From the IMG/VR virus record IMGVR_UViG_3300033067_000641, positions 1 to 58,093 of that record: a stretch of 58,093 nt of DNA. One strand, written 5' to 3'. This stretch comes from a virus (lineage: Duplodnaviria > Caudoviricetes). Each line of letters starts with the position of its first letter. The first letter of the stretch is position 1. Shown piece by piece: positions 1 through 58,093 of this stretch. Both the position numbers and the translations under genes were made by a program. The notes under the pieces were generated by a model, which was not told the DNA's origin, did no database searches, and was given only the letters and a program-made list of their open reading frames with translations.

Positions 1-2
1 CA

Positions 3-137
3 CGAAATACCGCCGTCTCACCAGCGCCGACTTTCGCAGATGGGATGACGGCTGAGGACGACAGGCGGTTTCTGGAACTGACCAACGACCTGACGCATAA
101 CGCAGAAATAACCGGCCGCGCCAGCGGTCCGGGTTGA
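3..137 (+). CDS. 3' end of a cassette ORF truncated by the window edge
   Basis: Frame 3 is open from the edge (...RRFLELTNDLTHNAEITGRASGPG*) and stops inside the attC, like the other cassette ORFs. Confidence 0.5.
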   Translation, partial: RNTAVSPAPTFADGMTAEDDRRFLELTNDLTHNAEITGRASGPG

Positions 138-181: not shown

Positions 182-421
182 ATGAGCAACGACCCTTGGA
201 TTTACCGCAGCGACAACATGAAGTGCAAGACGTGCATGTGGTTTGTGCCGAAGGTGGCAGCAACGCACCCGCTGCACGACAACAAACACAACGATACGAA
301 CACTTACGATCTTGGTCGTTGTCGTCGCCATGCGCCTTCGATGGGCGGCTATCCGGTAGTGATGGTCAATGATTGGTGCGGCGACCATCGGCTTGACGAG
401 AACAAGTTTCGTGCGGGCTAA
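182..421 (+). CDS. Cassette-borne small 4-Cys protein (HiPIP-like Cys spacing, probable Fe-S or Zn binding)
   Basis: RBS AAGGA. Motifs CKTC...GRCRR...DWCGDH. Stop TAA overlaps the GGCTAAC core box. Confidence 0.7.
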   Translation: MSNDPWIYRSDNMKCKTCMWFVPKVAATHPLHDNKHNDTNTYDLGRCRRHAPSMGGYPVVMVNDWCGDHRLDENKFRAG

Positions 422-440
422 CGCAACAGGTGAAACTGTG
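416..440 (-). repeat. Half/truncated attC (R' core plus L' remnant) or attI-equivalent array boundary
   Basis: Minus strand ...TTTCACCTGTTGC-GTTAGCC. GTGCGGGCTAAC (411-422) complements GTTAGCCCGTAC (145-156) at 11/12. No partner arm found. Confidence 0.65.
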
Positions 441-11676: not shown

Positions 11677-14600
11677 CTACGGGTTCCTTCCCGTCTGATC
11701 GGCCACCATCCCCCTGTTGCGCTTGTTCCACTGGATGCCCTCGATGGTCATCGCTTCGCGTTTCAGTTGCGATCCTTGCGAGCGATACATCCCTCCGATT
11801 GGCGTTGGCAGCAGACCGAGTTTGCGCTCGGCATCCTGATATTCCATCCACCGATCACGAAGCGCGGTCGTATCGCCCCCCGCCCGTTGAGTAGCCGCAT
11901 ACTCGTGCGCCAACCGATCATATCGGAGTTGGTAGTACGCCTGCTCTTGGTACTTGAAGTTCTCGATCAGTTGGCGCATCTCCATCCGACTTGAGTTGAA
12001 CCCGACCGCCGAAAGCGCGTGTTCCAGAGCCGTAATATCCTCTGGTGCGAGCAGCACGTCGTTCTTGCTGTTGGTTACACCGCCGAACGATTCCGTGCCG
12101 GGCAGCGCGGCCTGCCGGTATTCTCGCATACCGTTGCGGAGCATGGCGGGCATTAGCTGCTCCATGCCCTTGTAGTAATCCCCCTGCCGCATCTTAGCGT
12201 AGGCACCCATCCAGTCGTTGCCCACCATCCCTATGAATGGCCCCATGAAAGCGAGCGCCGTGTTGGCCAGATGCCCGCGATCAGATAAATCAACGTCTTC
12301 AAGCGGAATCACTGATGCCATGCCGCCCGCGCCCAGACGGCTCGTTACCGGTGCGCCCAGTGCTCCGGGTACGCCCTTGGTAATCAAATCCGCCATCGTC
12401 TGCCCCATATGCCCCGCAAGGAAATCGTTGAGATGATAATCGGGGGCAAGCGGCTCGTCTTTGTCTTTCAGCAGCCAATCAATAAGCGTCGAGGCAAAAC
12501 CGTACCCCGGCAAACCCATCGCGCCGGTCAGCGCACCATACTGGGTGAAGGTGTAGCCAAGCATGGCACGGGCGATCTTCTTCTCCTCCGGCGGCGCATC
12601 CCCGAAGGCGTTGGCGATGTTGCGAGCCAAGAGCGACACCTGCATCACTTGGAATTTCTTGAACTGGGTGATGAGGCGTACCGGCATGTTGGGCCACTGC
12701 TGCCGCATCATGTAGCGCGGGGTCGAGAAGGCATCAAACTCACCGTGACTGATCCGCACCAGTTTATCGGTCGCCTCTAAAGCCTTCTGGTGGTCGCCGC
12801 CATTCTTTGCCATCTCCATGCGGTACGCAGTCAGGGATGACATCACGCGGTTGATCGCTTCCATGTTGGTCGCAACGCGCATGAACCTGCCAAATGAGTT
12901 GGCAAATGCGTGAGAGAACGTGCCGCCCTCCGAACTCCCCAGATCGGTGAAATGTCCGAGGTCGATGCGCCCACGCTCCATCATGTACTTCAACATCTCT
13001 TTTTCGTTGGCGGTGCCGTCAAATTTCTCAGGGTCGAACGCACCCTTGCTGAACAGACTGACGTTGCGTTTGGCATCGCCCCACGCCTTAGTCATCGCCG
13101 CCCATGCCCCACCATAGTCGTTGTGCCGGGCCGCGAGCGTCGGGAGCATTACCATGAACGGCTCGGTGATCTGTTGCAGGTAGAACCCCGGCGAGGTGAC
13201 GATACGAACCCCCGCCGTCAGCTTTAGCGCCGACGTCGAGAACTTGTCCGGCGGGAGGTGGATGTTGTTCAGGTTGTGGCGAAGCAGAATCTCTTTGGCG
13301 TAGATCTTCCGCTGCTGTATATCGCCCTTGAGCGTAGCGGTCGTGCCATCGGCGTAGGTAATCTTGCCGTCTTTCGCTTTCGCCTCGGCCCGGATGCGCT
13401 CCAGTGCGTCATGGACGTCGCTGCTGTGGTGAAGAAGGGCTATGAGATGCGCCATCGACTTGTAGTGCTCCATCGAGGCGATCACGCGGTCGGGCCGGAA
13501 ACCGGCGACGTAGGCACGGTGCTGCGAGGAGTGCCGCGCACTGGTATCGGACAGGGCAGACAGGTACATCTCGTCGAGCGACCGTAGCGCCGCCGCCTGA
13601 GTCTTGCGGTCGATGCCATCCTCACCCTCATCCATATTTTTCAGTGATGCCTTCAACTTCTCGATCTGCTTGAACGGCATCTCGTTATTGGCGAAGAAGT
13701 TTTCACGCGGGTAGGCGACCGTGTTGGCCATCCCCTCTTTCCTGAGCATGCGCTCCATGTCTTCCATCTCGCCCCGAGTGCCGTGGACGATATAGTTGTG
13801 CTCGGGGTCTGCGCGCAGTTCGTTGTAGCGGGCGATCTGCTCCTTCGTGCCCTTCGTCCCTTTGGCCGTGCCATGCTCCAATTCGGAGAACTCTTTGGAC
13901 TGCCCTGCGGCAACCCAATCTCCAGTACGCACGAGGGGGGAGTACGGACCAGAGGACTCGGGAAAATCCTTCTTGATCTTCTTCAGCGCAGCGTCAAGCA
14001 CCTCTTTGGCGTGGGTCGGTTCGGCGTCTGCCTTGATGGCCTCGTCGTATGTCGCTTGAGCGCGTTCGCGCAGGCCGAGTTTGAGCGCCCCCATCATCTT
14101 GTGTCCGAGTTCGAAATGCTCGGCGACAACCTTCTTGGCTTCAGGAGTCAGGACAGCAAATGCTTTCGCTTCCTCGGATGCCTTATCGACCTTGATCCCG
14201 TACCCGCGCTTGGAGCCGAACTCGGCGGGGTCGTACCCCCATACCTTCGACTTGTCCATCATGGTAATGACGCGATCGGCGGCGTCCCGATCCGCCTTCT
14301 TCATCGCGGTGTAGTTCTGCCCATGCCGGTCGATGTCCATCGTAAGCGACAGCGCTTTCGCACTGCGTAGATGCTGAAGGTCGTAGTAGCGTTTGACGGA
14401 CGGCAGGTAGGGCTCCATGTGGTCAGCGAGATCGCCGAGGAAGGCCATGCCCAACCACTTATCACTTGCTGTCTTCATGGCCGCAATCGCCGCCGAGGCA
14501 GTTTTGCGTTGGCTCTCGGGCAGTGTGTTCAAAGTGCGGTCAATGCTGGCCTTCGACCAAATGGTACGGCGCGGGTCTTCCTTTTTCTCGGCGACTGAGC

Positions 14601-17600
14601 GCATCACGCGCTCACCGGACGGCTTTGTTGGCGCAGGTTCAGGCGACCACATGGAATGGGCGAGCGACCCTTGTAGAAGATTCACCAGATCCTGCCCGTC
14701 CATCTTGCCTTCACTGAGGTGGAACAGCCCCGTACCGTTGAGTGCCTTGACGACCCATTTGCGAATGTCGCGCAGTAGTTGTGCCGCCTTGCCGACCCCC
14801 TTGGGCGTGACGCCACGCTTGACGAGTTCCTCTGCGGTGTAGCCGATGAGTTCTTCATGAGCATCCTCCGGGTGCGTGTCCTTTGGGATGCGTTTCTTGG
14901 CAGCAGCAACAGCCTCCCGCTCGACAGCGGTGCCGTTCCTTCCGAAGTCATGGATGCGGTCAGCTACGGCACGGACGTTGTCAGCACCGATGAGCTTCTC
15001 CAGCCCAACGTGTGTGCCGACCTCGTGAAGCAGAATGCCCTTCTCGTTCCCGCGCTGTGTCCGGTTGGCGACGATAATCGCACGATCGCCCTTCCATGCA
15101 ATGCCCGCCACACCATCATTGAACAGATGCCGATCGGCTTCAGGGACATCATCCACCGAGTCATAGATCTGGATGCGGCTCTTGTTTGGCACGGCCTCAC
15201 CGGGACCGCCATACCCGGCCAGTTCCTCCAACGCAGCGCGCACGGAGCGTTCATCAGATGGGTCGGTAACTTCCTCGCCGACCGACTTTTTTGCCTTCTC
15301 CTCGGGGATCTCCCCGCCTACTGGCTTCTTCATCTTTTCTTCGGTGATTGCCTGCGCCCGGGTTTTCAGCGGAACAACACGCCCCGTTATCCGATCGCTA
15401 TTTTCGACAGCAGCACCGAGCCGAGCGGTCAAATTGGGGATGGTAGGTGCAGGGACAGCGAGTGACCCGTCGGCGTTTGTTCGCGCCTTCGTATCCATCT
15501 CGATTGACCTCGCCAATTCCAACAGCTTTGGCATCGTAGCGCGAGCCTTACCCGCTTTTACGTCGGCGAGGAAGTCTCGGATTTTCTCGATGCGCTCATC
15601 GACTGTGGGGGCGGCGGCTTTGCGGGACGCTTTCTTCGGTTTGCCTTGCTCGGCTTCAGGGGCTTCAGGGACATCGGGGATCTCCACTCGTGATTTGGAC
15701 TTTTCCAGTTCTGCTTTGACGTCGGGGGTAAGTCCGTCGAGACCCCCTTTCACTACGCCTTCGTGGGCGGGAGGCACAGACTCCTGCTTGTGGGCCATTT
15801 TCCCATCGACAGACGAAACAATATCGCTCGTAGGCTTCTTGCCATCTTTCGGAAGCGTAATAACTCGCCGGACAAACTTGCCGGATTCAGTACCTTCCTT
15901 TTCGCCCGTGATAATTGTCCGACCCGCCTTGTCCTTCCCCATCGACACCGTGAATCCAGCCTTCTCCAGTTTGGAGACTTGCTTCATAACGGTGGCGTTG
16001 TCGGAGGTGAACTTCTCCACCTCTTTGCGATTGCGCTCTCGTTCGCGCTCCCCGGCGGTAGCGGCAGCAGATTCCTCTGCGATCTTTTTGCGGGCAATTT
16101 CGGCGCGGGTGTCGGCATCAACGGCGTTTTTCATCTCGTTGAATGCTTCGTGACTGAGGCCAAGCCGCTGCCCAAGCCCGCGCAGGACTTCTCGTGCTGT
16201 CTTCCCTTGCCATGCCTCGATAGAGTCGTCATGTTTCCCGGACAGTTCGTTGACCGCCGATAGGGTCTTGACGACAGTGTCACCGTTCGGGTTCTTCTCA
16301 AGCTCGTAAGACACCCGATAGGGCTCGTGATCCACCTTCGAATAGACGGGCGGGTTCTTGGCGTCACGCGGCACATCGCTCGTCGATTCAGCCAAATCCG
16401 CTTCGGGGTAGGTATAAGCCAGATCTTCATTGCCGATCCGATCAGCCTCATCCCGCTTCCGGGTGGATTCCTTCTTCTCGGCTTTGCCTTTGACGGCCTC
16501 CTGAACTGACAGGCCGATCTTGCCCAGACGCTCGTCAGCCCCGACGTTGCGGAGATCGGTGCGGAGTTTCAGCATCTCGACCTGGATCTTACCCTTTGGC
16601 CCCTTCGTGCCGTGGTACATCTTGGTCAAGCCCTCGGAGCCGAGCAAACGCTCGATGAACTGGGCGAACGACGGACGCATGACTCCCGCACCCATGCCCT
16701 TCCTGTACCACTCATACATCTCGTCGAGCTTGTCCTTCAGTACCTTGCGCCGTTCGGCCACACCGGGGACGTTGCTGTCCTTGCCCAGTTCGTTGATCAG
16801 TGCAACGACGCGGCGGTTGGTGTATTCGTTCTCGCGGTTGATGTGGTTGTCGGGGCGCGAGAAGCGGGCTTGGGCAACACGGACAATCGGCGACAGATCC
16901 ATGTGCCGCGTAATGACTTCCATCACCTCGGGGCTATACTTCTTCGACATGATGTCGATGATGCGCCGCATCCCATCGTCTGTCAGCTTCTTGAACGGCT
17001 CTGCGTGGAGGTCACTGACGATGTCGCGAAGCAACTGGTCAGTCGCAGAAAGCTCGACAGCGCGAACGACACTGCCGTCCGGCATCACATCATCGCGAGT
17101 GACCGGCTCGTAGTGGGCAGAGGCATACTTGTTCAGAATGCGCCACGGGTTGCCGGGAGTGCCGTCGTCGTTCGACTTGTTGATGCGAGCACGGAGCGAA
17201 TCTACTTGTCGACGAGACTCCTTCGTCAATCCTCCGACATCCTGCCCCGCACCCTCATCCATCCGGCGCGAGCGAGCCTCGGCAAACGCGAGATCTGCGT
17301 CATTGACTTCACGAGCCTGCTTGTTCCGATTCTTGTTGCTCGTCAGGAATTCCTCAATCGCCGCGTTGGCGAGGTCAGCGGTATCCTTGTCGTCAAGCAG
17401 ACGGTTGGCGATGTCTTCCTTAATCAGCTTATCGCGCTGCGTGTATCCGCGTCGGGCGATATTGATCAACATGGCCAGTTCGATATGGCGAGTCAGATCG
17501 TTTCCGCCGAGAAGCTGAATACGCTTCATAATTTCAAGTACGGTGTCCTTGTCAGCACCGACGCTCGTGTTGGCGTCCTCTGCTGCGTTTTCATCGTGCG

Positions 17601-20328
17601 TCTTGGCGCGCTTTTCAAAGTCACCGACGTCTTTCAGCTTGCTCTCGATGGCGGGCACGACGTACTTGTCCCGCAAGGCCATGATGTGCTTCTCGCCCTT
17701 CTGGTTTCTGACGGCGTTGAGGATACTTTCGGCGTTGTCATCGGTCAGCCTACCCTGCCGCCACAGGTCATGTACCTCCTTGGCGAGCGCAGCGTGTTTC
17801 CCATCCGGCGGCGCGCCGACATCGCGATGAGCGAACATCTCCATCTGCTCTTGGAGTTGCAGCAGCTTGCCCATATTGCGGTTCTTCGCTGCCTTGTCGA
17901 ACTCGTCTTTCAGCAGGCGCAGTTTCAACTCGGCGTCATCACGAACCGATGCAGTGCTCTTGTGCTTGGCTCGGAGCTTCGCGATAGCTTCTTTAGCATC
18001 AGCCCAGACTTGCTTGCCGGTCTCGATCAGTTCTTGAAGGCGCGACTGGGTTTCGGCCCCGCCTGACGCCTTGGTAATCTGCGCTTTACGAGCAGCGGGG
18101 GAAAGCGGGGGTTTTTTGGCGGGGGCAGCACGTTCTTCAAGAGCCTGTTCTCCGCGCCCGACGATCGAATAAAGCTCCTCAAGCGCAGAGTGCTTGGCAA
18201 AATCGGGAACCATCCCGCCCGGTTCGTGCATTTGACGAACCTGTGCCATCAGAGTGTTGAATCGGGGGAGCAGCTTGGCCGCAGCGGCGGCTCGTGCGCC
18301 TGCTTTGGACGCAGCAGTCCAGTCCCCGACAGAGAACGCCCGCATGAAGTCGTCGAAGATTCCCTTCTTCGCGGTGCTATCTCCGACGCCATCATCGAAC
18401 GCCGATCTCCCACCCTTGAGAGAGTTATTCTCCGAGAACAGGTCAGGAGTATGTGGCTCACCGGAGCTTCGATCAAATGGAATGCCATCCCCGCTAGATG
18501 GGGGTGGAGGCTCGCCGCCATCTTTCGGTACAAGACTCAGACCCGACTCGGGTTTGGTGTAAGGGATGCCTGCGTCTTCGGTAGGTTGTGCGGCTTCTTT
18601 TGCACCAAAATCGAAAGCCGTCTGAGGAGAGCGAACGAGCTTGCCGTCGGCGTCATACATCGCCGTGGCAGGGGGGTTGATCGGACGCCCGCCCGACATC
18701 TGCGCCAGTTGTTCTTGAATCTCATTCCCCGCACGAGCAGCGGCGATTGCCTGCTCCGGCGTAAGCTGATGCGTCTGCATCATCATTTGGATCTGATGAA
18801 GCTGCCGACGAAGATCGTTTGCGTGATCCTGATTGACCGGGGGTACGCTGCCGGGGGGCACGGGAGGGGCAGGACGATCCGTGCCGTCCGTGTAGTAGTG
18901 GGGGACGTTCGTGCCCTTGCCACCAAACATATCGATCGTCGGCCCGGCGTTGGGTTGGCTCGGCCCGACCAAATCATCGTAGCCTACTTCCCTGCCTGCC
19001 TTCCGCGACTCGGCTTCCATCGAGTCGGCAAGACGCTGTACCTGCTCCATGTACCACGCTTGGGTGCCCTCTTTGCCAACAGTCGGCTCGATCTGCTTGC
19101 TGATCGTCTGAGCAGCTTGGAGAAGGTCTGTGGGCTGCGAGGTATCGTTAAGCTGACGCCCAAGTTCAGCACGGTCTTTTCCGTGCCCTCGTGCGTCCAG
19201 TGCTGCGCCGGGAGCCATAAATCCTGCGGTGAGCGCACCCGTAACCGCGCCTTGCGCGATAGTAGGCAAGTAACTTTCATCCTGACGCTTGCCGTATGCT
19301 TGGTCAATTGCAAGCTCGCCACCCGATTGAGCACCGAATACACCGGCATCCGCAGCGGCGGCGCGGGGGAGATTGCTGATGAACTGCTTGCCCCATGTAC
19401 CGTCGGTAGCTTGGGCAGCGGCTTTCCCTGCGTCGGTAGCCGTGATGCGGGCGGGTGCGCCGAGAACGCCGTGCGCTACCTTGCCTAATCCCCAGATACC
19501 CGCAGAAGCCAGACCGCCGTGCATCGCCGCGTTGGCCCGCGTATCGTCGAGCGACATCCCCTCGTCTTGGTTCTGGCGGAATTTTTCCTCGTAGGTCGAT
19601 GCGCCGAAAGCAGGCACCAGAGCCATGTTCAGACCGGCGCTCACGGCGGGGCCGACGTAGGGAATGAACTTCGCTGCCTGCGCGGCGACCAACGGCGCTG
19701 CTGCATTTGCTGCGCCGACCACTGTCTTGGACACATCGCCTCGCCCGTACATGTCGGGGTTCCACTGGAGCTTGTCAGCGGTCGCGTTGAGAGACTGGTT
19801 GATGCTGCTGTCGGCATCGAACGGGAGCGCGGCGGCGCGGGTGCCTAGAGCAAGGAGGTTGACCGGAGCATGCCCCAGTGCGCTTGCGACTTGCCCTACA
19901 TCGTGCCCAATACCGCGCTGCTGACCAGCCCATTGGAGGTAGCCATGCACTTCGTCAAGTGGCACGGCTTGGAAGCCTATCGGGATCTCGCCCCCGCGAT
20001 AGATAGCCGCGCCGGACTGCAACGAGTTGTCAACGTCTTGCAGATTCTTCAGATCAACGAGCTTTCCGTTGGCGAAGATCCGATTGCCATCGATGAGTAC
20101 ATGCGGTCCCTGTGGTGTCGGTTCAGGTGCGGGGGTAGGGGCTGGAGCCTGTTGAAGCGGGGGCAACCCTTGGTAGGTCGAGGGCATCGGCGAGCCCGCC
20201 GGGGGCAGGCCCTTGTAGCTCGGATGCGCGGCAGGCATCTGCAACCCTGCTTTGGGCGCGATACCCATAGCAGCATCCGACGAAATCCCGAACATCAGGG
20301 GGTTGGTCGCCGCCGTGTTTTGATCCAT
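11677..20328 (-). CDS. Large polyvalent internal virion/ejection protein (zincin HExxxH domain, PLxRFG-like C-terminal region)
   Basis: 2883 aa, last gene of the virion operon. Motifs LLHEVGTHVG...HEELIGY and YSPLVRTGDW, plus hydrophobic segments. Confidence 0.75.
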   Translation of the reverse strand: MDQNTAATNPLMFGISSDAAMGIAPKAGLQMPAAHPSYKGLPPAGSPMPSTYQGLPPLQQAPAPTPAPEPTPQGPHVLIDGNRIFANGKLVDLKNLQDVDNSLQSGAAIYRGGEIPIGFQAVPLDEVHGYLQWAGQQRGIGHDVGQVASALGHAPVNLLALGTRAAALPFDADSSINQSLNATADKLQWNPDMYGRGDVSKTVVGAANAAAPLVAAQAAKFIPYVGPAVSAGLNMALVPAFGASTYEEKFRQNQDEGMSLDDTRANAAMHGGLASAGIWGLGKVAHGVLGAPARITATDAGKAAAQATDGTWGKQFISNLPRAAAADAGVFGAQSGGELAIDQAYGKRQDESYLPTIAQGAVTGALTAGFMAPGAALDARGHGKDRAELGRQLNDTSQPTDLLQAAQTISKQIEPTVGKEGTQAWYMEQVQRLADSMEAESRKAGREVGYDDLVGPSQPNAGPTIDMFGGKGTNVPHYYTDGTDRPAPPVPPGSVPPVNQDHANDLRRQLHQIQMMMQTHQLTPEQAIAAARAGNEIQEQLAQMSGGRPINPPATAMYDADGKLVRSPQTAFDFGAKEAAQPTEDAGIPYTKPESGLSLVPKDGGEPPPPSSGDGIPFDRSSGEPHTPDLFSENNSLKGGRSAFDDGVGDSTAKKGIFDDFMRAFSVGDWTAASKAGARAAAAAKLLPRFNTLMAQVRQMHEPGGMVPDFAKHSALEELYSIVGRGEQALEERAAPAKKPPLSPAARKAQITKASGGAETQSRLQELIETGKQVWADAKEAIAKLRAKHKSTASVRDDAELKLRLLKDEFDKAAKNRNMGKLLQLQEQMEMFAHRDVGAPPDGKHAALAKEVHDLWRQGRLTDDNAESILNAVRNQKGEKHIMALRDKYVVPAIESKLKDVGDFEKRAKTHDENAAEDANTSVGADKDTVLEIMKRIQLLGGNDLTRHIELAMLINIARRGYTQRDKLIKEDIANRLLDDKDTADLANAAIEEFLTSNKNRNKQAREVNDADLAFAEARSRRMDEGAGQDVGGLTKESRRQVDSLRARINKSNDDGTPGNPWRILNKYASAHYEPVTRDDVMPDGSVVRAVELSATDQLLRDIVSDLHAEPFKKLTDDGMRRIIDIMSKKYSPEVMEVITRHMDLSPIVRVAQARFSRPDNHINRENEYTNRRVVALINELGKDSNVPGVAERRKVLKDKLDEMYEWYRKGMGAGVMRPSFAQFIERLLGSEGLTKMYHGTKGPKGKIQVEMLKLRTDLRNVGADERLGKIGLSVQEAVKGKAEKKESTRKRDEADRIGNEDLAYTYPEADLAESTSDVPRDAKNPPVYSKVDHEPYRVSYELEKNPNGDTVVKTLSAVNELSGKHDDSIEAWQGKTAREVLRGLGQRLGLSHEAFNEMKNAVDADTRAEIARKKIAEESAAATAGERERERNRKEVEKFTSDNATVMKQVSKLEKAGFTVSMGKDKAGRTIITGEKEGTESGKFVRRVITLPKDGKKPTSDIVSSVDGKMAHKQESVPPAHEGVVKGGLDGLTPDVKAELEKSKSRVEIPDVPEAPEAEQGKPKKASRKAAAPTVDERIEKIRDFLADVKAGKARATMPKLLELARSIEMDTKARTNADGSLAVPAPTIPNLTARLGAAVENSDRITGRVVPLKTRAQAITEEKMKKPVGGEIPEEKAKKSVGEEVTDPSDERSVRAALEELAGYGGPGEAVPNKSRIQIYDSVDDVPEADRHLFNDGVAGIAWKGDRAIIVANRTQRGNEKGILLHEVGTHVGLEKLIGADNVRAVADRIHDFGRNGTAVEREAVAAAKKRIPKDTHPEDAHEELIGYTAEELVKRGVTPKGVGKAAQLLRDIRKWVVKALNGTGLFHLSEGKMDGQDLVNLLQGSLAHSMWSPEPAPTKPSGERVMRSVAEKKEDPRRTIWSKASIDRTLNTLPESQRKTASAAIAAMKTASDKWLGMAFLGDLADHMEPYLPSVKRYYDLQHLRSAKALSLTMDIDRHGQNYTAMKKADRDAADRVITMMDKSKVWGYDPAEFGSKRGYGIKVDKASEEAKAFAVLTPEAKKVVAEHFELGHKMMGALKLGLRERAQATYDEAIKADAEPTHAKEVLDAALKKIKKDFPESSGPYSPLVRTGDWVAAGQSKEFSELEHGTAKGTKGTKEQIARYNELRADPEHNYIVHGTRGEMEDMERMLRKEGMANTVAYPRENFFANNEMPFKQIEKLKASLKNMDEGEDGIDRKTQAAALRSLDEMYLSALSDTSARHSSQHRAYVAGFRPDRVIASMEHYKSMAHLIALLHHSSDVHDALERIRAEAKAKDGKITYADGTTATLKGDIQQRKIYAKEILLRHNLNNIHLPPDKFSTSALKLTAGVRIVTSPGFYLQQITEPFMVMLPTLAARHNDYGGAWAAMTKAWGDAKRNVSLFSKGAFDPEKFDGTANEKEMLKYMMERGRIDLGHFTDLGSSEGGTFSHAFANSFGRFMRVATNMEAINRVMSSLTAYRMEMAKNGGDHQKALEATDKLVRISHGEFDAFSTPRYMMRQQWPNMPVRLITQFKKFQVMQVSLLARNIANAFGDAPPEEKKIARAMLGYTFTQYGALTGAMGLPGYGFASTLIDWLLKDKDEPLAPDYHLNDFLAGHMGQTMADLITKGVPGALGAPVTSRLGAGGMASVIPLEDVDLSDRGHLANTALAFMGPFIGMVGNDWMGAYAKMRQGDYYKGMEQLMPAMLRNGMREYRQAALPGTESFGGVTNSKNDVLLAPEDITALEHALSAVGFNSSRMEMRQLIENFKYQEQAYYQLRYDRLAHEYAATQRAGGDTTALRDRWMEYQDAERKLGLLPTPIGGMYRSQGSQLKREAMTIEGIQWNKRNRGMVADQTGRNP

Positions 20329-55353: not shown

Positions 55354-55631
55354 ACGATGATGGGTTCTGTGGGATGTTGGTTCTGATATTGAGCCTGCTC
55401 CTGTGGGCGATTACCACGATGAACCATGCCGAGACGTTCATCAGGACGCGGGAGAAGATGCACCGCACCGGCATTGACCTGTGGTGTGAACTGGTGAATA
55501 GGTTGCAGGAATGCCTCGATGACCAGAACATTCCGCAGAACGTCGAGGGGCCTGCGGAGCTATGCCCCAAACCTGCGCCCGGTTTTGAATTCGATGCCCG
55601 TGGCGTTCTCGTGAGAAAGATGGACTCATGA
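55350..55631 (+). CDS. Membrane-anchored hypothetical protein
   Basis: N-terminal TM segment, ATGA-coupled. Confidence 0.6.
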   Translation: MNDDGFCGMLVLILSLLLWAITTMNHAETFIRTREKMHRTGIDLWCELVNRLQECLDDQNIPQNVEGPAELCPKPAPGFEFDARGVLVRKMDS

Positions 55632-56017
55632 AGTTCGAATTCGAACGCGCCGACCCTGCCGCGCTTGCCACCTTTGACCCACGGACCAAAGCATGCACCA
55701 TGAATTGCGGACCAAGTTTTGACGATCCGCGATCACCAGAGGAACGGCGTTTTCTGTGTCCTGACTGCGAAACGGTCAAATTGCCACGGCAACAGGATTT
55801 TGATTGGGCTGATCGACAACTGCCGACCGGAGTTACGCGGCAAGACGTGTGCATCTGGACGCAGGACAGCGATGGACCGTGGAACACTTCCTGCGGTGTG
55901 ACGTGGGAATTTGTTGATGGTGGACCAGCCGAGAACGGTGCGCATTTTTGCCACCATTGCGGTGGGGTGCTGATGGCAGCGCCATTTGCCGACGACGATG
56001 CACAGCCTAACGTGTAG
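55628..56017 (+). CDS. Cys-rich protein ending inside the first attC
   Basis: CTMNCG..CPDC and C..SCG..FCHHCG. Ends ...PNV*. Confidence 0.7.
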   Translation: MKFEFERADPAALATFDPRTKACTMNCGPSFDDPRSPEERRFLCPDCETVKLPRQQDFDWADRQLPTGVTRQDVCIWTQDSDGPWNTSCGVTWEFVDGGPAENGAHFCHHCGGVLMAAPFADDDAQPNV

Positions 56018-56072
56018 TTCAGGGGGCTGAGCCGGCCTTATGGCGAAGCTCCCTTGCAATGACGGGTTAGCC
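56005..56072 (-). repeat. attC: attC-like site (68 bp)
   Basis: Minus: GGCTAAC-CCGTCA-TTGCAAGGGAGCT...AGCCCCCTGAA-CTACAC-GTTAGGC. Confidence 0.88.
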
Positions 56073-56111
56073 GCCTGCCCACTCAGACGGCACAACAGCA
56101 AAGGAAAAGAA

Positions 56112-56477
56112 ATGCGCACACTGAACGAGCACCAAGTAAACCCCGCGAATGACACGCTGAAAATTACCGTGACGGATGAACCCGGCGCTGGCGGCGCAAA
56201 CCACCGCTACGAAGTGAGCGGCATCCCGAACCAAACGGCGACGGTTATTGAGTTCCAGAACGGGCCGATTAACGAGGACGGCAATGGCGTGAACGGCCTT
56301 ACGCATGAGGTTCTGCTTGCCATCGTCGCCGACCGTCTGCGCAGCTTCCAAGCAGGGGCTTACTCCTGCAAGGCGAACGCTTGCGCTCTGACGCACATTG
56401 AGGAAGCGCAGCACTGGCTGCAACAGCGCACTCTGGAGCGCATGCGCCGTGGTGTCGAAGGTACTCACACGGTTTGA
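56112..56477 (+). CDS. tad1: Tad1-like anti-Thoeris sponge protein (cassette-borne)
   Basis: GAGGANHRY, IEFQNG, LLAIVADRLRSFQAG.YSC..NACALTHIEEA..W...R...R..RGVEGT, matching the Tad1 pattern as I recall it. RBS AAGGA. Confidence 0.82.
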   Translation: MRTLNEHQVNPANDTLKITVTDEPGAGGANHRYEVSGIPNQTATVIEFQNGPINEDGNGVNGLTHEVLLAIVADRLRSFQAGAYSCKANACALTHIEEAQHWLQQRTLERMRRGVEGTHTV

Positions 56478-56513
56478 TGTGACGGCCGGCATGACGACGC
56501 GAGAACTCATGCG

Positions 56514-56636
56514 CTCTAACGTAGAGCTAACCGGCGTGCCGCCCACGGACGCCACCAAGGGAGGATGAGCATGGAGCAAGAACAGAAGGTTGAAGGAACA
56601 TCGAGCGGCACGTCCGCGTTGAGCGCCGGGTTGGGG
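56514..56636 (-). repeat. attC: attC-like site with long terminal loop (123 bp)
   Basis: Minus: CCCCAAC-CCGGCG-CTCAACGCGGACGTGCCGC...GCGGCACGCCGGTTAG-CTCTAC-GTTAGAG. Confidence 0.85.
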
Positions 56637-56852
56637 GCGATGACGCATTTCTGGTGCGAGGTGTGCGATGCAATACAGCCCGCATTTTTTGAGGGGGCGA
56701 ACCACCAAGATACGTCTGGTGATTTTGTCGGAGGCGATGTTGTGTGCAGCGTGTGTGCCTTCATCGTTGCCACTGCATATACCCCCAACGTGGATGTCAC
56801 CGGCGCGAGCGGCGCTTTTGCCGCGAAGCGTCCGTGTGGACAGAAGGGTTAG
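56565..56852 (+). CDS. Cassette zinc-ribbon protein, starts within one attC and ends within the next
   Basis: GGGAGG RBS in the attC loop. CEVC...CSVC. Alternative ATG at 56640. Confidence 0.65.
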   Translation: MSMEQEQKVEGTSSGTSALSAGLGAMTHFWCEVCDAIQPAFFEGANHQDTSGDFVGGDVVCSVCAFIVATAYTPNVDVTGASGAFAAKRPCGQKG

Positions 56853-56854
56853 CC
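56783..56854 (-). repeat. attC: attC-like site (72 bp)
   Basis: Minus: GGCTAAC-CCTTCT-GTCCACACGGACGC...GCGCCGGTGAC-ATCCAC-GTTGGGG. Confidence 0.88.
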
Positions 56855-56857
56855 ATC

Positions 56858-57082
56858 ATGAACCGGATAGAAGTTGACCGCGCCCTCGGGCAGACGCCAT
56901 GCATCTGTGGCGACGTTGAGAACTGGCACCCGCAATGCTATGCGAAGTTTCTCGGCAGGCCGAAGCACGAAATTGATGCCGCGATGGATCGCGCTTACCG
57001 CACGGCGCGGCGCAAGTTGAAAGAGCGAGCGAAAGTGCAGGCAGGGGAAGCACTAATGATGGCTAACGCAAAAGTGAGCTGA
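56858..57082 (+). CDS. Cassette hypothetical protein (CxC..WH..CY)
   Basis: ATG just after the core box. Ends ...ANAKVS* inside the next attC. Confidence 0.7.
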   Translation: MNRIEVDRALGQTPCICGDVENWHPQCYAKFLGRPKHEIDAAMDRAYRTARRKLKERAKVQAGEALMMANAKVS

Positions 57083-57126
57083 CTGCGCGGCTTTTCGCGC
57101 AGGTCAGCTCGACTGCCGGGTTAGCC
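57061..57126 (-). repeat. attC: attC-like site (66 bp)
   Basis: Minus: GGCTAAC-CCGGCA-GTCGAGCTGACCTGCGCG-AAAAGC-CGCGCAGTCAGCTCAC-TTTTGC-GTTAGCC. Confidence 0.92.
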
Positions 57127-57151
57127 CCGGCGCTACTACGGAGAAAAGAAC

Positions 57152-57529
57152 ATGGACATACAACGACTGCGGAACCTGACCACCGGCCGGCTGCACACCA
57201 AGATGGAAGACATCTACGCCGACATTGAGCACCTGACCGGTGAGGAAGGCGTGATGACACACCAGCTACCGAACGCATGCCGCGCACTCGAACCTTACCT
57301 GCGCGAGAAAGTGACGGATGAGCGGTTTTGGGACGGTGAATACGACACCACGCACACCGGAGAAATTGACGTTCCGCCGATGGACGATGTGGCGCGAAAG
57401 ACGATGTGGGAGCGGTACGGCGCAATGCCATCGTTGCTGGCCTCGATAGGGGCTAACGTCGAACATCAGGGGCCGCGTAGCGGTCCGCTGCATGGCCCGG
57501 TTGGGCCACAAACCAAGGAGCCGATATGA
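57152..57529 (+). CDS. Cassette hypothetical phage protein reading through the next attC
   Basis: RBS GGAG. LTTGRL...MTHQLP. ATGA-coupled to the next cassette gene. Confidence 0.75.
   Translation: MDIQRLRNLTTGRLHTKMEDIYADIEHLTGEEGVMTHQLPNACRALEPYLREKVTDERFWDGEYDTTHTGEIDVPPMDDVARKTMWERYGAMPSLLASIGANVEHQGPRSGPLHGPVGPQTKEPI
57451..57506 (-). repeat. attC: attC-like site (56 bp)
   Basis: Minus: GCCCAAC-CGGGC-CATGCAGCGGACCGC-TAC-GCGGCCCCTGATG-TTCGAC-GTTAGCC. Confidence 0.88.
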
Positions 57530-57729
57530 AACTACAACAAGCCGCCGCAGAACTTGTGAAGCTCGCAGAAGCGAACGATGCGATGTCTTTCATCTTCGAC
57601 ACCTCGCAGGACGGGAAGGTGCGAATTGATTGGCAGGGCTGCATGAAGATCGAAGTTGCACCGGGCGATATGCAAGCCGTGGTGGATGCAATGCAAATGC
57701 TGGAAGACCTTGGGATCGCGGTGATATGA
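57526..57729 (+). CDS. Cassette hypothetical protein (paralogue A)
   Basis: RBS AAGGAG. Confidence 0.78.
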   Translation: MKLQQAAAELVKLAEANDAMSFIFDTSQDGKVRIDWQGCMKIEVAPGDMQAVVDAMQMLEDLGIAVI

Positions 57730-57730
57730 G

Positions 57731-57791
57731 GCCCAACGAGTGAGGTAACCGGCGCCTGCTTGCAGGCGTCCGGTTGACCGAGAGGCATAAC
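57731..57791 (-). repeat. attC: attC-like site with micro-inverted R'' box
   Basis: L arms GGTAACCGGCGCCTGC/GCAGGCGTCCGGTTGACC are intact. The expected + strand GTTATGC reads GCATAAC inside the IR CCGAGAGG/CCTCTCGG. Confidence 0.8.
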
Positions 57792-57817
57792 CTCTCGGAA
57801 CTATGGAGGAACGACAA

Positions 57818-58012
57818 GTGAGCATACAGGCAGCAGCGCAAGAGGTGTTTGATGCGTGCAGGGCGGTGGATGAAGAACTTGAGGTGACTTTCGACGCCAA
57901 CGAAATCACGATCTATTGGGAAAACCTTCGCATCGACGTGCAGCCCAAAGACCTCGTCAAGGCGCTCAAGGTGATTAAGGACGCCAAGGCGCTCGGAGCG
58001 AGATTCGAGTGA
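57818..58012 (+). CDS. Cassette hypothetical protein (paralogue B)
   Basis: GGAGG RBS before GTG 57818. Aligns with 57526-57729. Confidence 0.78.
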   Translation: MSIQAAAQEVFDACRAVDEELEVTFDANEITIYWENLRIDVQPKDLVKALKVIKDAKALGARFE

Positions 58013-58013
58013 G

Positions 58014-58084
58014 GCATAACGCCGCCTTGAGGGGCGCGGAGCCGGCTTCATCGGCGGAGCGTCCGCTCGAAGGCACAGTTATGC
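58014..58084 (-). repeat. attC: attC-like site (71 bp)
   Basis: Minus: GCATAAC-TGTGCC-TTCGAGCGGACGC...GCGCCCCTCAA-GGCGGC-GTTATGC. Confidence 0.88.
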
Positions 58085-58093
58085 GTAAGGAGG

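Follow-up and report, generated by a model that had tools for sequence, protein, structure and literature searches.

A probable integron-type cassette array in a 58-kb phage genome without a detected integrase gene

Results

The window analyzed here is an entire IMG/VR record of 58,093 nucleotides from a virus of the class Caudoviricetes (IMGVR_UViG_3300033067_000641). Eight imperfect palindromes of 56 to 123 nt lie toward its two ends, at 56005-56072 (S1, 68 nt), 56514-56636 (S2, 123 nt), 56783-56854 (S3, 72 nt), 57061-57126 (S4, 66 nt), 57451-57506 (S5, 56 nt), 57731-57792 (S6), 58014-58084 (S7, 71 nt) and 95-151 (S8, 57 nt), each starting where an earlier note on this DNA had placed it, and these hairpins separate eight small genes. 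The half site that the same note had reported near 416 was also found: GGGCTAAC ends at 422, and the array end (411..422, + strand) consists of a left box only (GTGCGGGCTAAC), without a hairpin. This end forms the junction with the phage backbone and occupies the position that attI holds in integrase-bearing relatives. Phage genes flank the array on both sides in a single record, for which CheckV gives a completeness of 100%. The sole blastn match among 50,697 phage records was Xanthomonas phage Elanor (152 nt, 69%), and GC skew did not reveal the polarity of replication.

The earlier note had treated the genome as one that can be rotated across 58093/1. The window does not simply close there, as its relative L269 has approximately 190 nt extra in the c7 cassette. 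The record ends cut this one cassette, of which ~190 nt are missing: it starts at 58078..58093 (+ strand), is interrupted, and continues with its 3′ part at 1..101 (+ strand), positions 10-101 of which match L269. The complete c7 unit measures ~290 nt in L269, and its ends (GTTATGCGT and ACGCATAAC) are complementary over 9 nt.

All genes of the array are encoded on the + strand. The left flank is an ORF at 55628..56017 (129 aa, PHROG 10312) whose last codons form the left box of S1. It is followed by c1 (56112..56477, 121 aa, PHROG 2428, function unknown), c2 (56571..56852, 93 aa, with CxxC pairs and no family), which reads through S3, c3 (56858..57082, 74 aa, no family), whose unit ends are complementary over 12 nt, c4 (57152..57529, DUF7736, Pfam 2.7e-17), c5 (57526..57729, 67 aa, no family), c6 (57803..58012, 69 aa, no family above the cut-off) and, beyond c7, c8 (182..421, 79 aa, Cys-rich, no family). 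Conservation of c4 extends only as far as 57457 (...SIGAN, GGGGCTAAC); its remaining tail is read from S5, and the tails of 20 orthologs diverge after the N. L269 encodes an identical (100%) c8 protein, but its backbone is a different one. A likeness of c5 and c6 seen by eye suggested paralogs, which we rejected because BLASTP yields no alignment.

Recognition of the palindromes as attC sites was assessed with a covariance model, R1, built from 10 attC sites flanking two IntI genes of Thiobacillus denitrificans RG and from no other training sites. The whole 58-kb window was scanned on both strands with filters off; E-values are approximate, because calibration was shortened. Seven significant matches were obtained (E 1.6e-10 to 8.8e-4), all on the + strand and all at palindromes: S1 (31.1 bits, E 4.7e-6), S3 (33.8 bits, E 8.3e-7), S4 (47.4 bits, E 1.6e-10), S5 (33.5 bits, E 1e-6), S6 (22.8 bits, E 8.8e-4), S7 (25.3 bits, E 1.7e-4) and S8 (34.2 bits, E 6.5e-7). 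S2 gave a partial match (14.1 bits, E 0.2), and the next best elsewhere in the window had an E-value of 1.2, so that the attC character claimed in the earlier note was recovered by the model at seven of eight palindromes, partially at the eighth, and nowhere else below E 1. R1 found 0 matches in 759,669 bases of unrelated viral loci, and the box, spacer and L-box sequences of the window sites are common to Thiobacillus sites. These comparisons support an assignment of the window palindromes as attC-type. An in-house geometry scan and an 8-mer unit-end scan were dropped as statistics, being too permissive.

We also checked the DNA folds of the eight sites against the bottom-strand rules of Nivina 2016 (PMC5027507), which in the portion of that source cited here comprise an R box of the form 5′-RYYYAAC / GTTRRRY-3′, spacers of 5-6 nt, a bulged G close to the L box, a final bulged T separated from this G by 6 bp, and a length of 57-141 nt. 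The attC hairpin geometry (R box, unpaired spacers, L box, extrahelical bases on one arm) is complete in seven of the eight sites, and the fold of the + strand is more stable than that of the − strand in all eight. In each of the seven sites with a GTT box, single-base bulges on the + strand occur exclusively in the 3′ arm; they are C and T in S1 and S5, and G, T and T in S3, while the last bulge is G rather than T in S4 and S7. The best-formed site, S4, has a 7-bp R box, 5-nt spacers, a 3-bp L box and two bulged G on the 3′ arm; S7 and S8 were folded likewise. S5 resembles Thiobacillus L102:17140 in its left half. The long and atypical S2 has 3′-arm bulges G, C and T and a 59-nt terminal loop containing the ribosome-binding site and start codon of c2; its R, UCS and L boxes match Thiobacillus site L102:18850. 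S6 has a textbook stem (L box, bulged G, 6 bp, bulged T), but in the record its right box reads GCATAAC instead of a GTT box, within the small palindrome GAGAGG-CATAA-CCTCTC. Contigs of four runs carry GGTTATGCC at this position, where the GTT box is intact and complements the c6 end. None of the sites matched the intrinsic-terminator pattern or is followed by a T-run, an Rfam search of the window at gathering thresholds gave 0 matches, and a search restricted to sigma-70-like promoters detected none in 56000-58093.

R1 is a bottom-strand model, and it matches the coding strand at all seven window sites, the ORFs being on the same strand. Genes of the window array are consequently not on the attC top strand, the placement by which insertion at attI brings cassette genes under the cassette promoter (Pc). 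Controls showed the opposite arrangement: a Vibrio integron with cassette genes on + and intIA on − gave three R1 matches, all on −; on Thiobacillus contig C27, R1 matches lie on the intI strand and ORFs on the other; and in phage TJE1 two R1 matches (E 5.8e-4 and 0.012), located at the orf1 and orf2 ends, fall on the strand not used by the ORFs. Because the + strand of the window corresponds to the attC bottom strand, the left box is R′, the crossover falls at AA|C there, and the genes run opposite to those of textbook cassettes. The earlier note had located IntI insertion at G/TT, which is right only if the − strand is read; on the strand given, the crossover point lies in the left boxes, at AA|C. 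On IntI-bearing IMG/VR contigs, 47 of 67 inter-site segments have their gene on the intI (bottom) strand, as in the window. Gene strand was called per segment by a score of start, SD and GC3, which was correct on controls and replaced a longest-ORF call that produced too many ties.

Anchored at GTT/AAC, each right box is complementary to the next left box over 5, 8, 12, 9, 8, 9 and 9 nt, whereas complementarity within single sites covers 3-7 nt; every unit-end pair quoted in the earlier note was present. Random re-pairing of boxes reached the observed sum in 3 of 200,000 trials, and elsewhere in the genome 8 nt is reached by 16 of 9,674 GTT...AAC pairs 60-500 nt apart. The same signature was found across 13 DUF7736 loci, where cognate unit ends average 8.7 nt (12 of 13 reaching 8 nt) and non-cognate pairs 4.4 nt (2 of 142 reaching 8 nt). 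This pattern supports the view that the unit ends carry the footprint of circular cassettes.

Breakpoints at AA|C in relatives, which the earlier note had proposed to look for, were seen in DUF7736 loci, in L269 and in contigs of four runs. In the window, L001, L006/L007, L008, L009, L010 and L015, conservation of the DUF7736 unit begins shortly before GTTAGCCCC and ends with GGGGCTAAC. It occurs in at least seven contexts besides the window; all downstream sequences differ, and homology ends exactly at AAC. In an alignment of 10 loci, the window and L010 share the S4 hairpin body together with c4 and break at the upstream AA|C, as do L006 and L007, which share a hairpin and the DUF7736 gene; the block 57111-57457 is 92% identical in L001. 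Three different hairpin bodies precede the DUF7736 gene (window/L010, L006/L007 and L001) with only box and spacer parts in common, an arrangement that is not predicted by strict cassette linkage. In L015 the gene has no upstream hairpin and is flanked by direct GGCTAAC repeats, and in L011-L014 it accompanies a decayed site. Positions 10-422 of the window are 97.8% identical in L269, and homology stops exactly at the AAC ending at 422. Such a two-unit block on an unrelated backbone points to a recent site-specific transfer. Among the 32 contig pieces listed from four runs, 11 start or end within 2 nt of a left-box AAC, and one piece from run X9 spans exactly 57455-57737, from AAC to AAC. Joints with sides shorter than 30 nt (56536 to 56611, 56521 to 58063), per-unit depths and uncovered parts were left out of this contig evidence.

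R1 matches accompany a minority of the homologs of the cargo genes. They are absent from 62 of 80 DUF7736 loci, 74 of 80 c1 loci and 79 of 80 c8 loci, and homologs of c8 and c1 are mostly ordinary phage genes; in five of the 80 viral loci with a c1 homolog, an R1 match ends ~40 nt upstream of the gene. The C-terminal 70 aa of the left flank ORF stand alone as a cassette in relatives, the homolog in L104-L107 having R1 matches on either side. Backbone relatives identified by DNA polymerase (L003-L005, 36-69% identity) have no R1 matches in their available DNA, so that gain and loss cannot be followed between close relatives of a single phage lineage.

Consistent with the earlier note's description of an array with no integrase, neither TIGR02249 nor PF00589 detected a tyrosine recombinase in the record, while both profiles match in 14 of 14 control genomes. 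The right junction of the array is unlike the attI consensus of IntI-bearing relatives; of the three features of a complete integron (intI, an adjacent attI and Pc), the window hence has neither of the first two. With seven to eight attC sites inside 2.6 kb and IntI absent from the record, the array falls within the CALIN class (clusters of attC sites lacking an integrase), which calls for two or more neighboring sites and a replicon free of IntI. No IntI exceeded the cut-off in five array-bearing viral records. Like arrays occur in further viral records, one of which has direct terminal repeats. Beside a Thiobacillus IntI (457 bits, cut-off 265), a DUF7736 cassette is second from attI and has the same inverted gene orientation. 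A Thiobacillus prophage-side IntI has relatives on 33 IMG/VR contigs (L351-L383), and such arrays are found in 24 of 38 loci examined. The IntI-bearing relatives have a conserved attI (AAC-TTAAATTC-ACGACA...TGTCG) just upstream of intI.

Discussion

We propose that 56005-58093 together with 1-422 is probably an integrase-less integron-type cassette array (CALIN) carried by a 58-kb phage and dependent on IntI in trans. The array lies in the early, rightward-transcribed region of the phage. Its mobile unit would begin with the C of a left-box AA|C and finish with the AA of the following one, and it comprises the body of a hairpin, a GTT box, a ribosome-binding site and the gene. Once a unit is excised as a circle, pairing of its two ends would restore a complete R box. 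Coding strand (+) and recombinogenic bottom strand are the same, so that the genes are transcribed by the phage, yet would be antisense to Pc in a classical bacterial integron. Lacking a recombinase of its own, the phage would have to rely for gain, loss and exchange of units on an integron integrase supplied in trans, either from the host chromosome or from a resident or co-infecting phage encoding one. The structure of the sites and their polarity, the signature at the unit ends, the modular breakpoints and a link to sites adjacent to IntI are direct observations; we infer that IntI catalyzed these events and that the array may be active at present, and any cargo function is assigned in the same conditional way.

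The array could instead be a relic that IntI put together in a temperate ancestor or donor with an integrase of its own, and that then moved to a virulent-type backbone by ordinary recombination and is now inert. We regard this as unlikely. The window has no IntI, attI-like sequence or tyrosine recombinase, the right box of S6 is disabled, S2 is atypical, the leftmost gene has lost its own hairpin though it is a cassette in L104-L107, and the decayed sites of L011-L014 would fit as well. However, full geometry is kept in seven sites, unit ends are perfectly complementary over 8-12 nt, contigs from four studies branch at AAC positions, and the block shared with L269 argues for a recent site-specific event. 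Shuffling by homology or microhomology at conserved boundaries, a mechanism suggested for promoter-stem-loop cassettes in T4-type phages, would require no integrase. The PeSL “mobile regulatory cassettes” of these phages, which Arbiol and colleagues reportedly described in 2010, are said to consist of an early promoter and a stem-loop and to move by homologous recombination. They resemble the window array in that small early genes of unknown function, bounded by stem-loops, are shuffled between phages. Box, spacer and L-box stretches are indeed common to different sites (TAACGCAAAAGT on the left, GAYTGCCGGGTTAGCC on the right), and homology upstream of the DUF7736 gene, where three hairpin bodies occur, begins inside the right arm. 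We nevertheless consider this explanation highly unlikely, as it would leave unexplained the complementary variable box letters at the two unit ends, the exact IntI-type geometry with strand-specific G/T bulges, and the presence of the same site family beside IntI genes with a conserved attI; unlike PeSL cassettes, moreover, the array has no promoter-like sites (sigma-70 pattern), and its hairpins have IntI-type R and L boxes with bulges.

That the hairpins are RNA-level elements only (processing sites, stabilizers or weak terminators), with AAC and GTT incidental, seems extremely improbable. They are transcribed in the sense orientation between genes, overlapping gene ends, and attC sites are thought to contain weak terminators, according to the portion of Qi et al. 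2023 (PMC9892861) cited here. Yet no T-run follows any hairpin, Rfam gave no match, a DNA-site model derived from IntI-adjacent sites detects them, and homology breaks at AAC; they may have an additional RNA role alongside recombination. We give next to no weight to an assembly chimera of bacterial integron DNA fused to a phage contig. The record is a metagenome assembly classed as “linear” whose ends are inside the array, but phage genes stand on either side of it in one record that CheckV scores as complete, like arrays exist in other viral records, including the one with direct terminal repeats, and gene orientation is unlike that of a bacterial chromosomal array.

Within the proposed trans-dependent array, a further reading is tentative, and we place it slightly below an even chance: the integron may be phage-adapted. 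An IntI clade would reside on temperate phages and prophages, with attI at the downstream end of a phage cassette operon and genes on the bottom strand, co-directional with intI, and integrase-less virulent phages would share this cassette pool in trans. In this way small early genes, namely methyltransferases, DUF7736 and unknowns, plausibly acting in host takeover or anti-defence, would pass between unrelated phages as site-specific units. A bacterial integron that captured such units would leave them silent, given their inverted orientation.

Integrons are regarded as devices of bacteria. The earlier note considered them rare in phages; the window array is long, but phage integron components are already published, 17 CALINs having been reported in 10,705 phage genomes, with 2-4 predicted attC sites each, in the portion of Qi et al. 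2023 (PMC9892861) cited here. According to the same source, 5 of 6 tested phage attCs recombined with attI1 via IntI1, the bottom strand better than the top. [quoted passage not shown] The window array differs from those published in having eight sites and a half site and in belonging to a large metagenomic family, and from TJE1 in that R1 matches are on the coding strand rather than opposite to the ORFs. Classical chromosomal integrons (Thiobacillus denitrificans RG contig C27; the Vibrio array in phage Va_90-11-286_p16) have the same attC geometry, AAC/GTT boxes and unit-end signature, with the same attC polarity relative to intI in both; in contrast to them, the window has no intI or attI, and its genes are on the bottom rather than the top attC strand. 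Complete prophage integrons (Vibrio anguillarum and Shewanella phages, in the cited portion of Qi et al. 2023, PMC9892861) and the IntI-bearing L351-L383 share their site family with the window, but have the IntI and conserved attI that it lacks.

What sets the array apart is that it is long and well formed in an integrase-less phage, that many related arrays exist on viral contigs, that its unexpected gene orientation is consistent, and that its sites and those next to a phage-side integrase clade form one family. If active, the sites would give phages a site-specific means of swapping early accessory genes between unrelated backbones, and the orientation rule would keep phage and bacterial cassette pools apart. 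Arrays of this type offer a handle for finding mobile early phage genes in metagenomes. As for the entry of a first cassette, IntI can insert cassettes at non-att sites of bacterial genomes, termed attG, according to the portion of a preprint (10.1101/2022.09.11.507474) cited here; this insertion, demonstrated for bacterial genomes, might have occurred at a plain GTT of the phage backbone, and the right end of the window array is comparable in being a lone AAC junction without attI-like sequence.

Genome context and structure of the array

The 58,093-bp window is an entire IMG/VR virus record with a GC content of 58.4%, which CheckV rates as 100% complete and whose class, "linear", means that end repeats were not found. 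Its products include a family A DNA polymerase, a PD-(D/E)XK exonuclease, an SNF2 helicase and a DUF927 primase, together with a major head protein, a portal-like protein and a large terminase. A 2,883-aa ORF (11677–20328, −) has no Pfam match; its one PHROG match (5e-20), to a family without assigned function, covers the last 600 residues. The product is possibly a giant virion protein. The array (56005–58093 and 1–422) lies upstream of the replication genes, among a series of small genes that point rightward. Searches of the window with TIGR02249 for an integron-integrase and with PF00589 for tyrosine recombinases in general returned no match, both models scoring in 14/14 control genomes, which bears out an earlier claim that no integrase is present.

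The eight palindromes of 56–123 nt reported in the earlier note, here S1 to S8, were all found at exactly the reported starts (56005, 56514, 56783, 57061, 57451, 57731, 58014 and 95). All open with xxxxAAC and seven of the eight close with GTTxxxx. DNA folds confine single-base bulges to the 3′ arm of the + strand: C and T in S1; G, C and T in S2; G, T and T in S3; G and G in S4; C and T in S5; G and T in S7. At 8/8 sites, the fold of the + strand is more stable than that of the − strand. None of the sites resembles an intrinsic terminator or a sigma-70 promoter, and the hairpins may have an additional RNA role. The 59-nt loop of S2 (56536–56611) holds the ribosome-binding site and start codon of the cassette gene c2; a short loop appears to stand in for it in some environmental contigs, the supporting joints having sides of less than 30 nt.

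Covariance model of attC sites

The cassette gene at 57152 encodes a DUF7736 protein, a relative of which was found in Thiobacillus denitrificans RG by a scan of species genomes. In this strain the DUF7736 gene shares one 24.8-kb contig with an integron-integrase gene (457 bits, cut-off 265), another intI, which is broken, is found on a different contig, and hairpins of the same kind occur between the genes adjoining both. A covariance model, R1, was trained on 10 of these Thiobacillus hairpins only, read on the intI coding strand, and run on the full length of both strands of the window with filters off. R1 gave seven matches of 22.8–47.4 bits (E-values of 1.6e-10 to 8.8e-4, rough because of a shortened calibration), all on the + strand and all at the palindromes, while the long site S2 gave a partial match (14.1 bits, E 0.2). 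The best score anywhere else in the window had an E-value of 1.2, and a control of 759,669 bases from unrelated viral loci gave no R1 match. Several window sites have box, spacer and L-box sequence in common with particular Thiobacillus sites, S2 resembling the site at L102:18850 and S5 the site at L102:17140. The proposal that these are attC-type sites is thus upheld for seven of the eight at significant scores and in part for S2.

Polarity of sites and genes

According to the available text of Nivina 2016 (PMC5027507), the attC bottom strand carries 5′-RYYYAAC at its 5′ end, the bulged G and T lie in the arm opposite RYYYAAC, and crossover takes place between A and C of that AAC. Because these rules place RYYYAAC and the bulges so, the + strand of the window corresponds to the attC bottom strand. 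Three controls confirm the R1 strand reading. In the Vibrio integron on phage Va_90-11-286_p16, cassette genes are on + and intIA on −, with 3/3 R1 matches on −. In the second Thiobacillus array (contig G001:C27), R1 matches are on the intI strand and ORFs on the opposite one; by strand score (start, SD and GC3), six are minus, one is plus and one is unclear. In the phage TJE1 CALIN (attC cluster without integron-integrase), R1 matches twice (E 5.8e-4 and 0.012), where orf1 and orf2 end, and in both cases on the strand that does not carry the ORFs. In contrast to TJE1, R1 matches and genes are on the same strand in the window, whose cassette genes are therefore inverted with respect to textbook cassettes. 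The R″-L″-loop-L′-R′ geometry described earlier stands, but its labels need to be swapped, and the crossover is AA/C in the left boxes rather than G/TT.

Boundaries and mobility of the units

All the complementary unit ends quoted in the earlier note were confirmed. Between consecutive sites, the right box of the first complements the left box of the second over 5, 8, 12, 9, 8, 9 and 9 nt, compared with 3–7 nt inside single sites; random re-pairing of the boxes reached the observed sum in 3/200,000 trials, and only 16 of 9,674 GTT...AAC pairs in the remainder of the genome reach 8 nt. In 13 related loci, mean complementarity is 8.7 nt for cognate unit ends versus 4.4 nt for non-cognate ends.

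Twenty DUF7736 orthologs (74–92% identical) agree through ...SIGAN, the codons of GGGGCTAAC, and diverge immediately thereafter. The conserved block, running from just before GTTAGCCCC to GGGGCTAAC, is present in the window and in loci L001, L006/L007, L008, L009, L010 and L015, with different downstream sequence in each. The window and L010 have hairpin body and gene in common and lose homology at the upstream AA/C, as do L006 and L007. These sequence comparisons fit a unit that comprises a hairpin, a GTT box and a gene and has AA as its last bases. Positions 10–422 of the window are 97.8% identical to L269, a relative with a different backbone, and the match stops exactly at AAC 422. Past this shared AAC, L269 carries ACTAATTATCCGGAC (690–730), which resembles the attI-side sequence beside the Thiobacillus IntI, TCAAATTATCCGACAC; no IntI was found in the 34-kb record of L269 (87% complete). 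In Logan contigs of four runs, one per study and drawn from river, wastewater and sludge, 11 of the 32 longest pieces have a start or an end no more than 2 nt away from a left-box AAC, and one piece corresponds exactly to 57455–57737.

Most likely, the units formed as circles and were inserted by an integron integrase at AA/C on the folded + strand. The phage would transcribe them within its early operon, each cassette gene being provided with its own ribosome-binding site directly after the GTT box. Since the phage lacks a recombinase, it would depend on IntI from its host or another phage; we infer such a supply, and that the array is active at present.

Irregular sites and record defects

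Some observations fit this model poorly. Three different hairpin bodies, with only box, spacer and L-box parts in common, occur upstream of the same DUF7736 gene in different loci. In L015, direct GGCTAAC repeats flank this gene on both sides and the upstream hairpin is absent, and in L011–L014 most of the upstream hairpin is deleted and premature stops precede the AAC end. R1 sites were carried by 18/80 loci for DUF7736, 6/80 for c1 and 1/80 for c8; the cargo genes are thus, for the most part, ordinary phage genes that are sometimes cassettes.

Other irregularities concern the record. The right box of S6 reads GCATAAC in place of a GTT box, within GAGAGG-CATAA-CCTCTC (57780–57796). Contigs of all four runs have GGTTATGCC instead, in which the five middle letters are reverse-complemented; this leaves the GTT box intact and restores its complementarity to the end of the following gene. 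The record therefore differs by a flipped 5-nt loop within a 6-bp palindrome, produced by either a genuine inversion or an assembly artefact. Cassette c7 is cut by the record ends (58078–58093 and 1–138). In L269:94–440 the unit is complete and about 190 nt longer, and its ORF (about 100 aa) has CxxC pairs; the window record therefore either misses about 190 nt or has a deletion there.

Phage integrons and related integrases

Qi et al. 2023 (PMC9892861), the only paper on phage attC sites found in full-text searches of a library with few subscription journals, surveyed 10,705 phage genomes, counted 17 CALINs in them alongside 3 complete integrons and one In0, and showed experimental IntI1 recombination at 5/6 sites. 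The earlier note considered integrons rare in phages; its phage-borne array holds, but a phage CALIN is, given these reports, a known kind. The published phage CALINs have 2–4 sites, whereas the window array has eight. In the same literature we found no precedent for the array length, the bottom-strand genes, the large metagenomic family or the tie to a phage-side IntI clade.

R1 matches lie on the strand of the query gene at the DUF7736 metagenome loci (41/41), L104–L107 (15/15), the c1 loci (9/9) and L269 (2/2). No IntI above the cut-off was detected in five array-bearing viral records, one of which has terminal repeats and is rated 100% complete. Relatives of the Thiobacillus IntI occur on 33 IMG/VR viral contigs (L351–L383). 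Among 38 tblastn loci with such relatives, 30 are nearly full-length at 51–87% identity, 3 partial and 5 distant. R1 found 100 sites in 24 of the 38, in arrays of up to 10 attC sites; 99 of the 100 share the strand of intI, and nearly all lie upstream of that gene. By strand score, the gene is on the intI strand in 47 of 67 inter-site segments (one duplicate locus left out), opposite in 1 and unclear in 19. A conserved sequence after the last AAC, TTAAATTC-ACGACA...TGTCG...TAACTC, looks like the attI of these loci. One gene end, ...TTTTGACGCACAAC, closes many arrays in the L351–L383 contigs.

The intact Thiobacillus IntI is itself at the end of a prophage-like region (G001:C52; L101:16784–19378, L090:7320–9462). 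Here HTH regulators, DUF2303 and an ANT/pRha antirepressor precede four inverted cassettes (N6/N4 methyltransferase, an unknown ORF, DUF7736 and a C5-methyltransferase-like ORF), beyond which lie an attI-like site, intI, another tyrosine recombinase gene and a fragment of gltX. The second integron of this strain (L102:14800–19960, G001:C27), whose intI is split in two (model positions 1–147 and 146–314), has a canonical array with ORFs opposite to the intI strand; judged by their translations, a HigB/HigA-like pair and a NERD-like ORF are among them.
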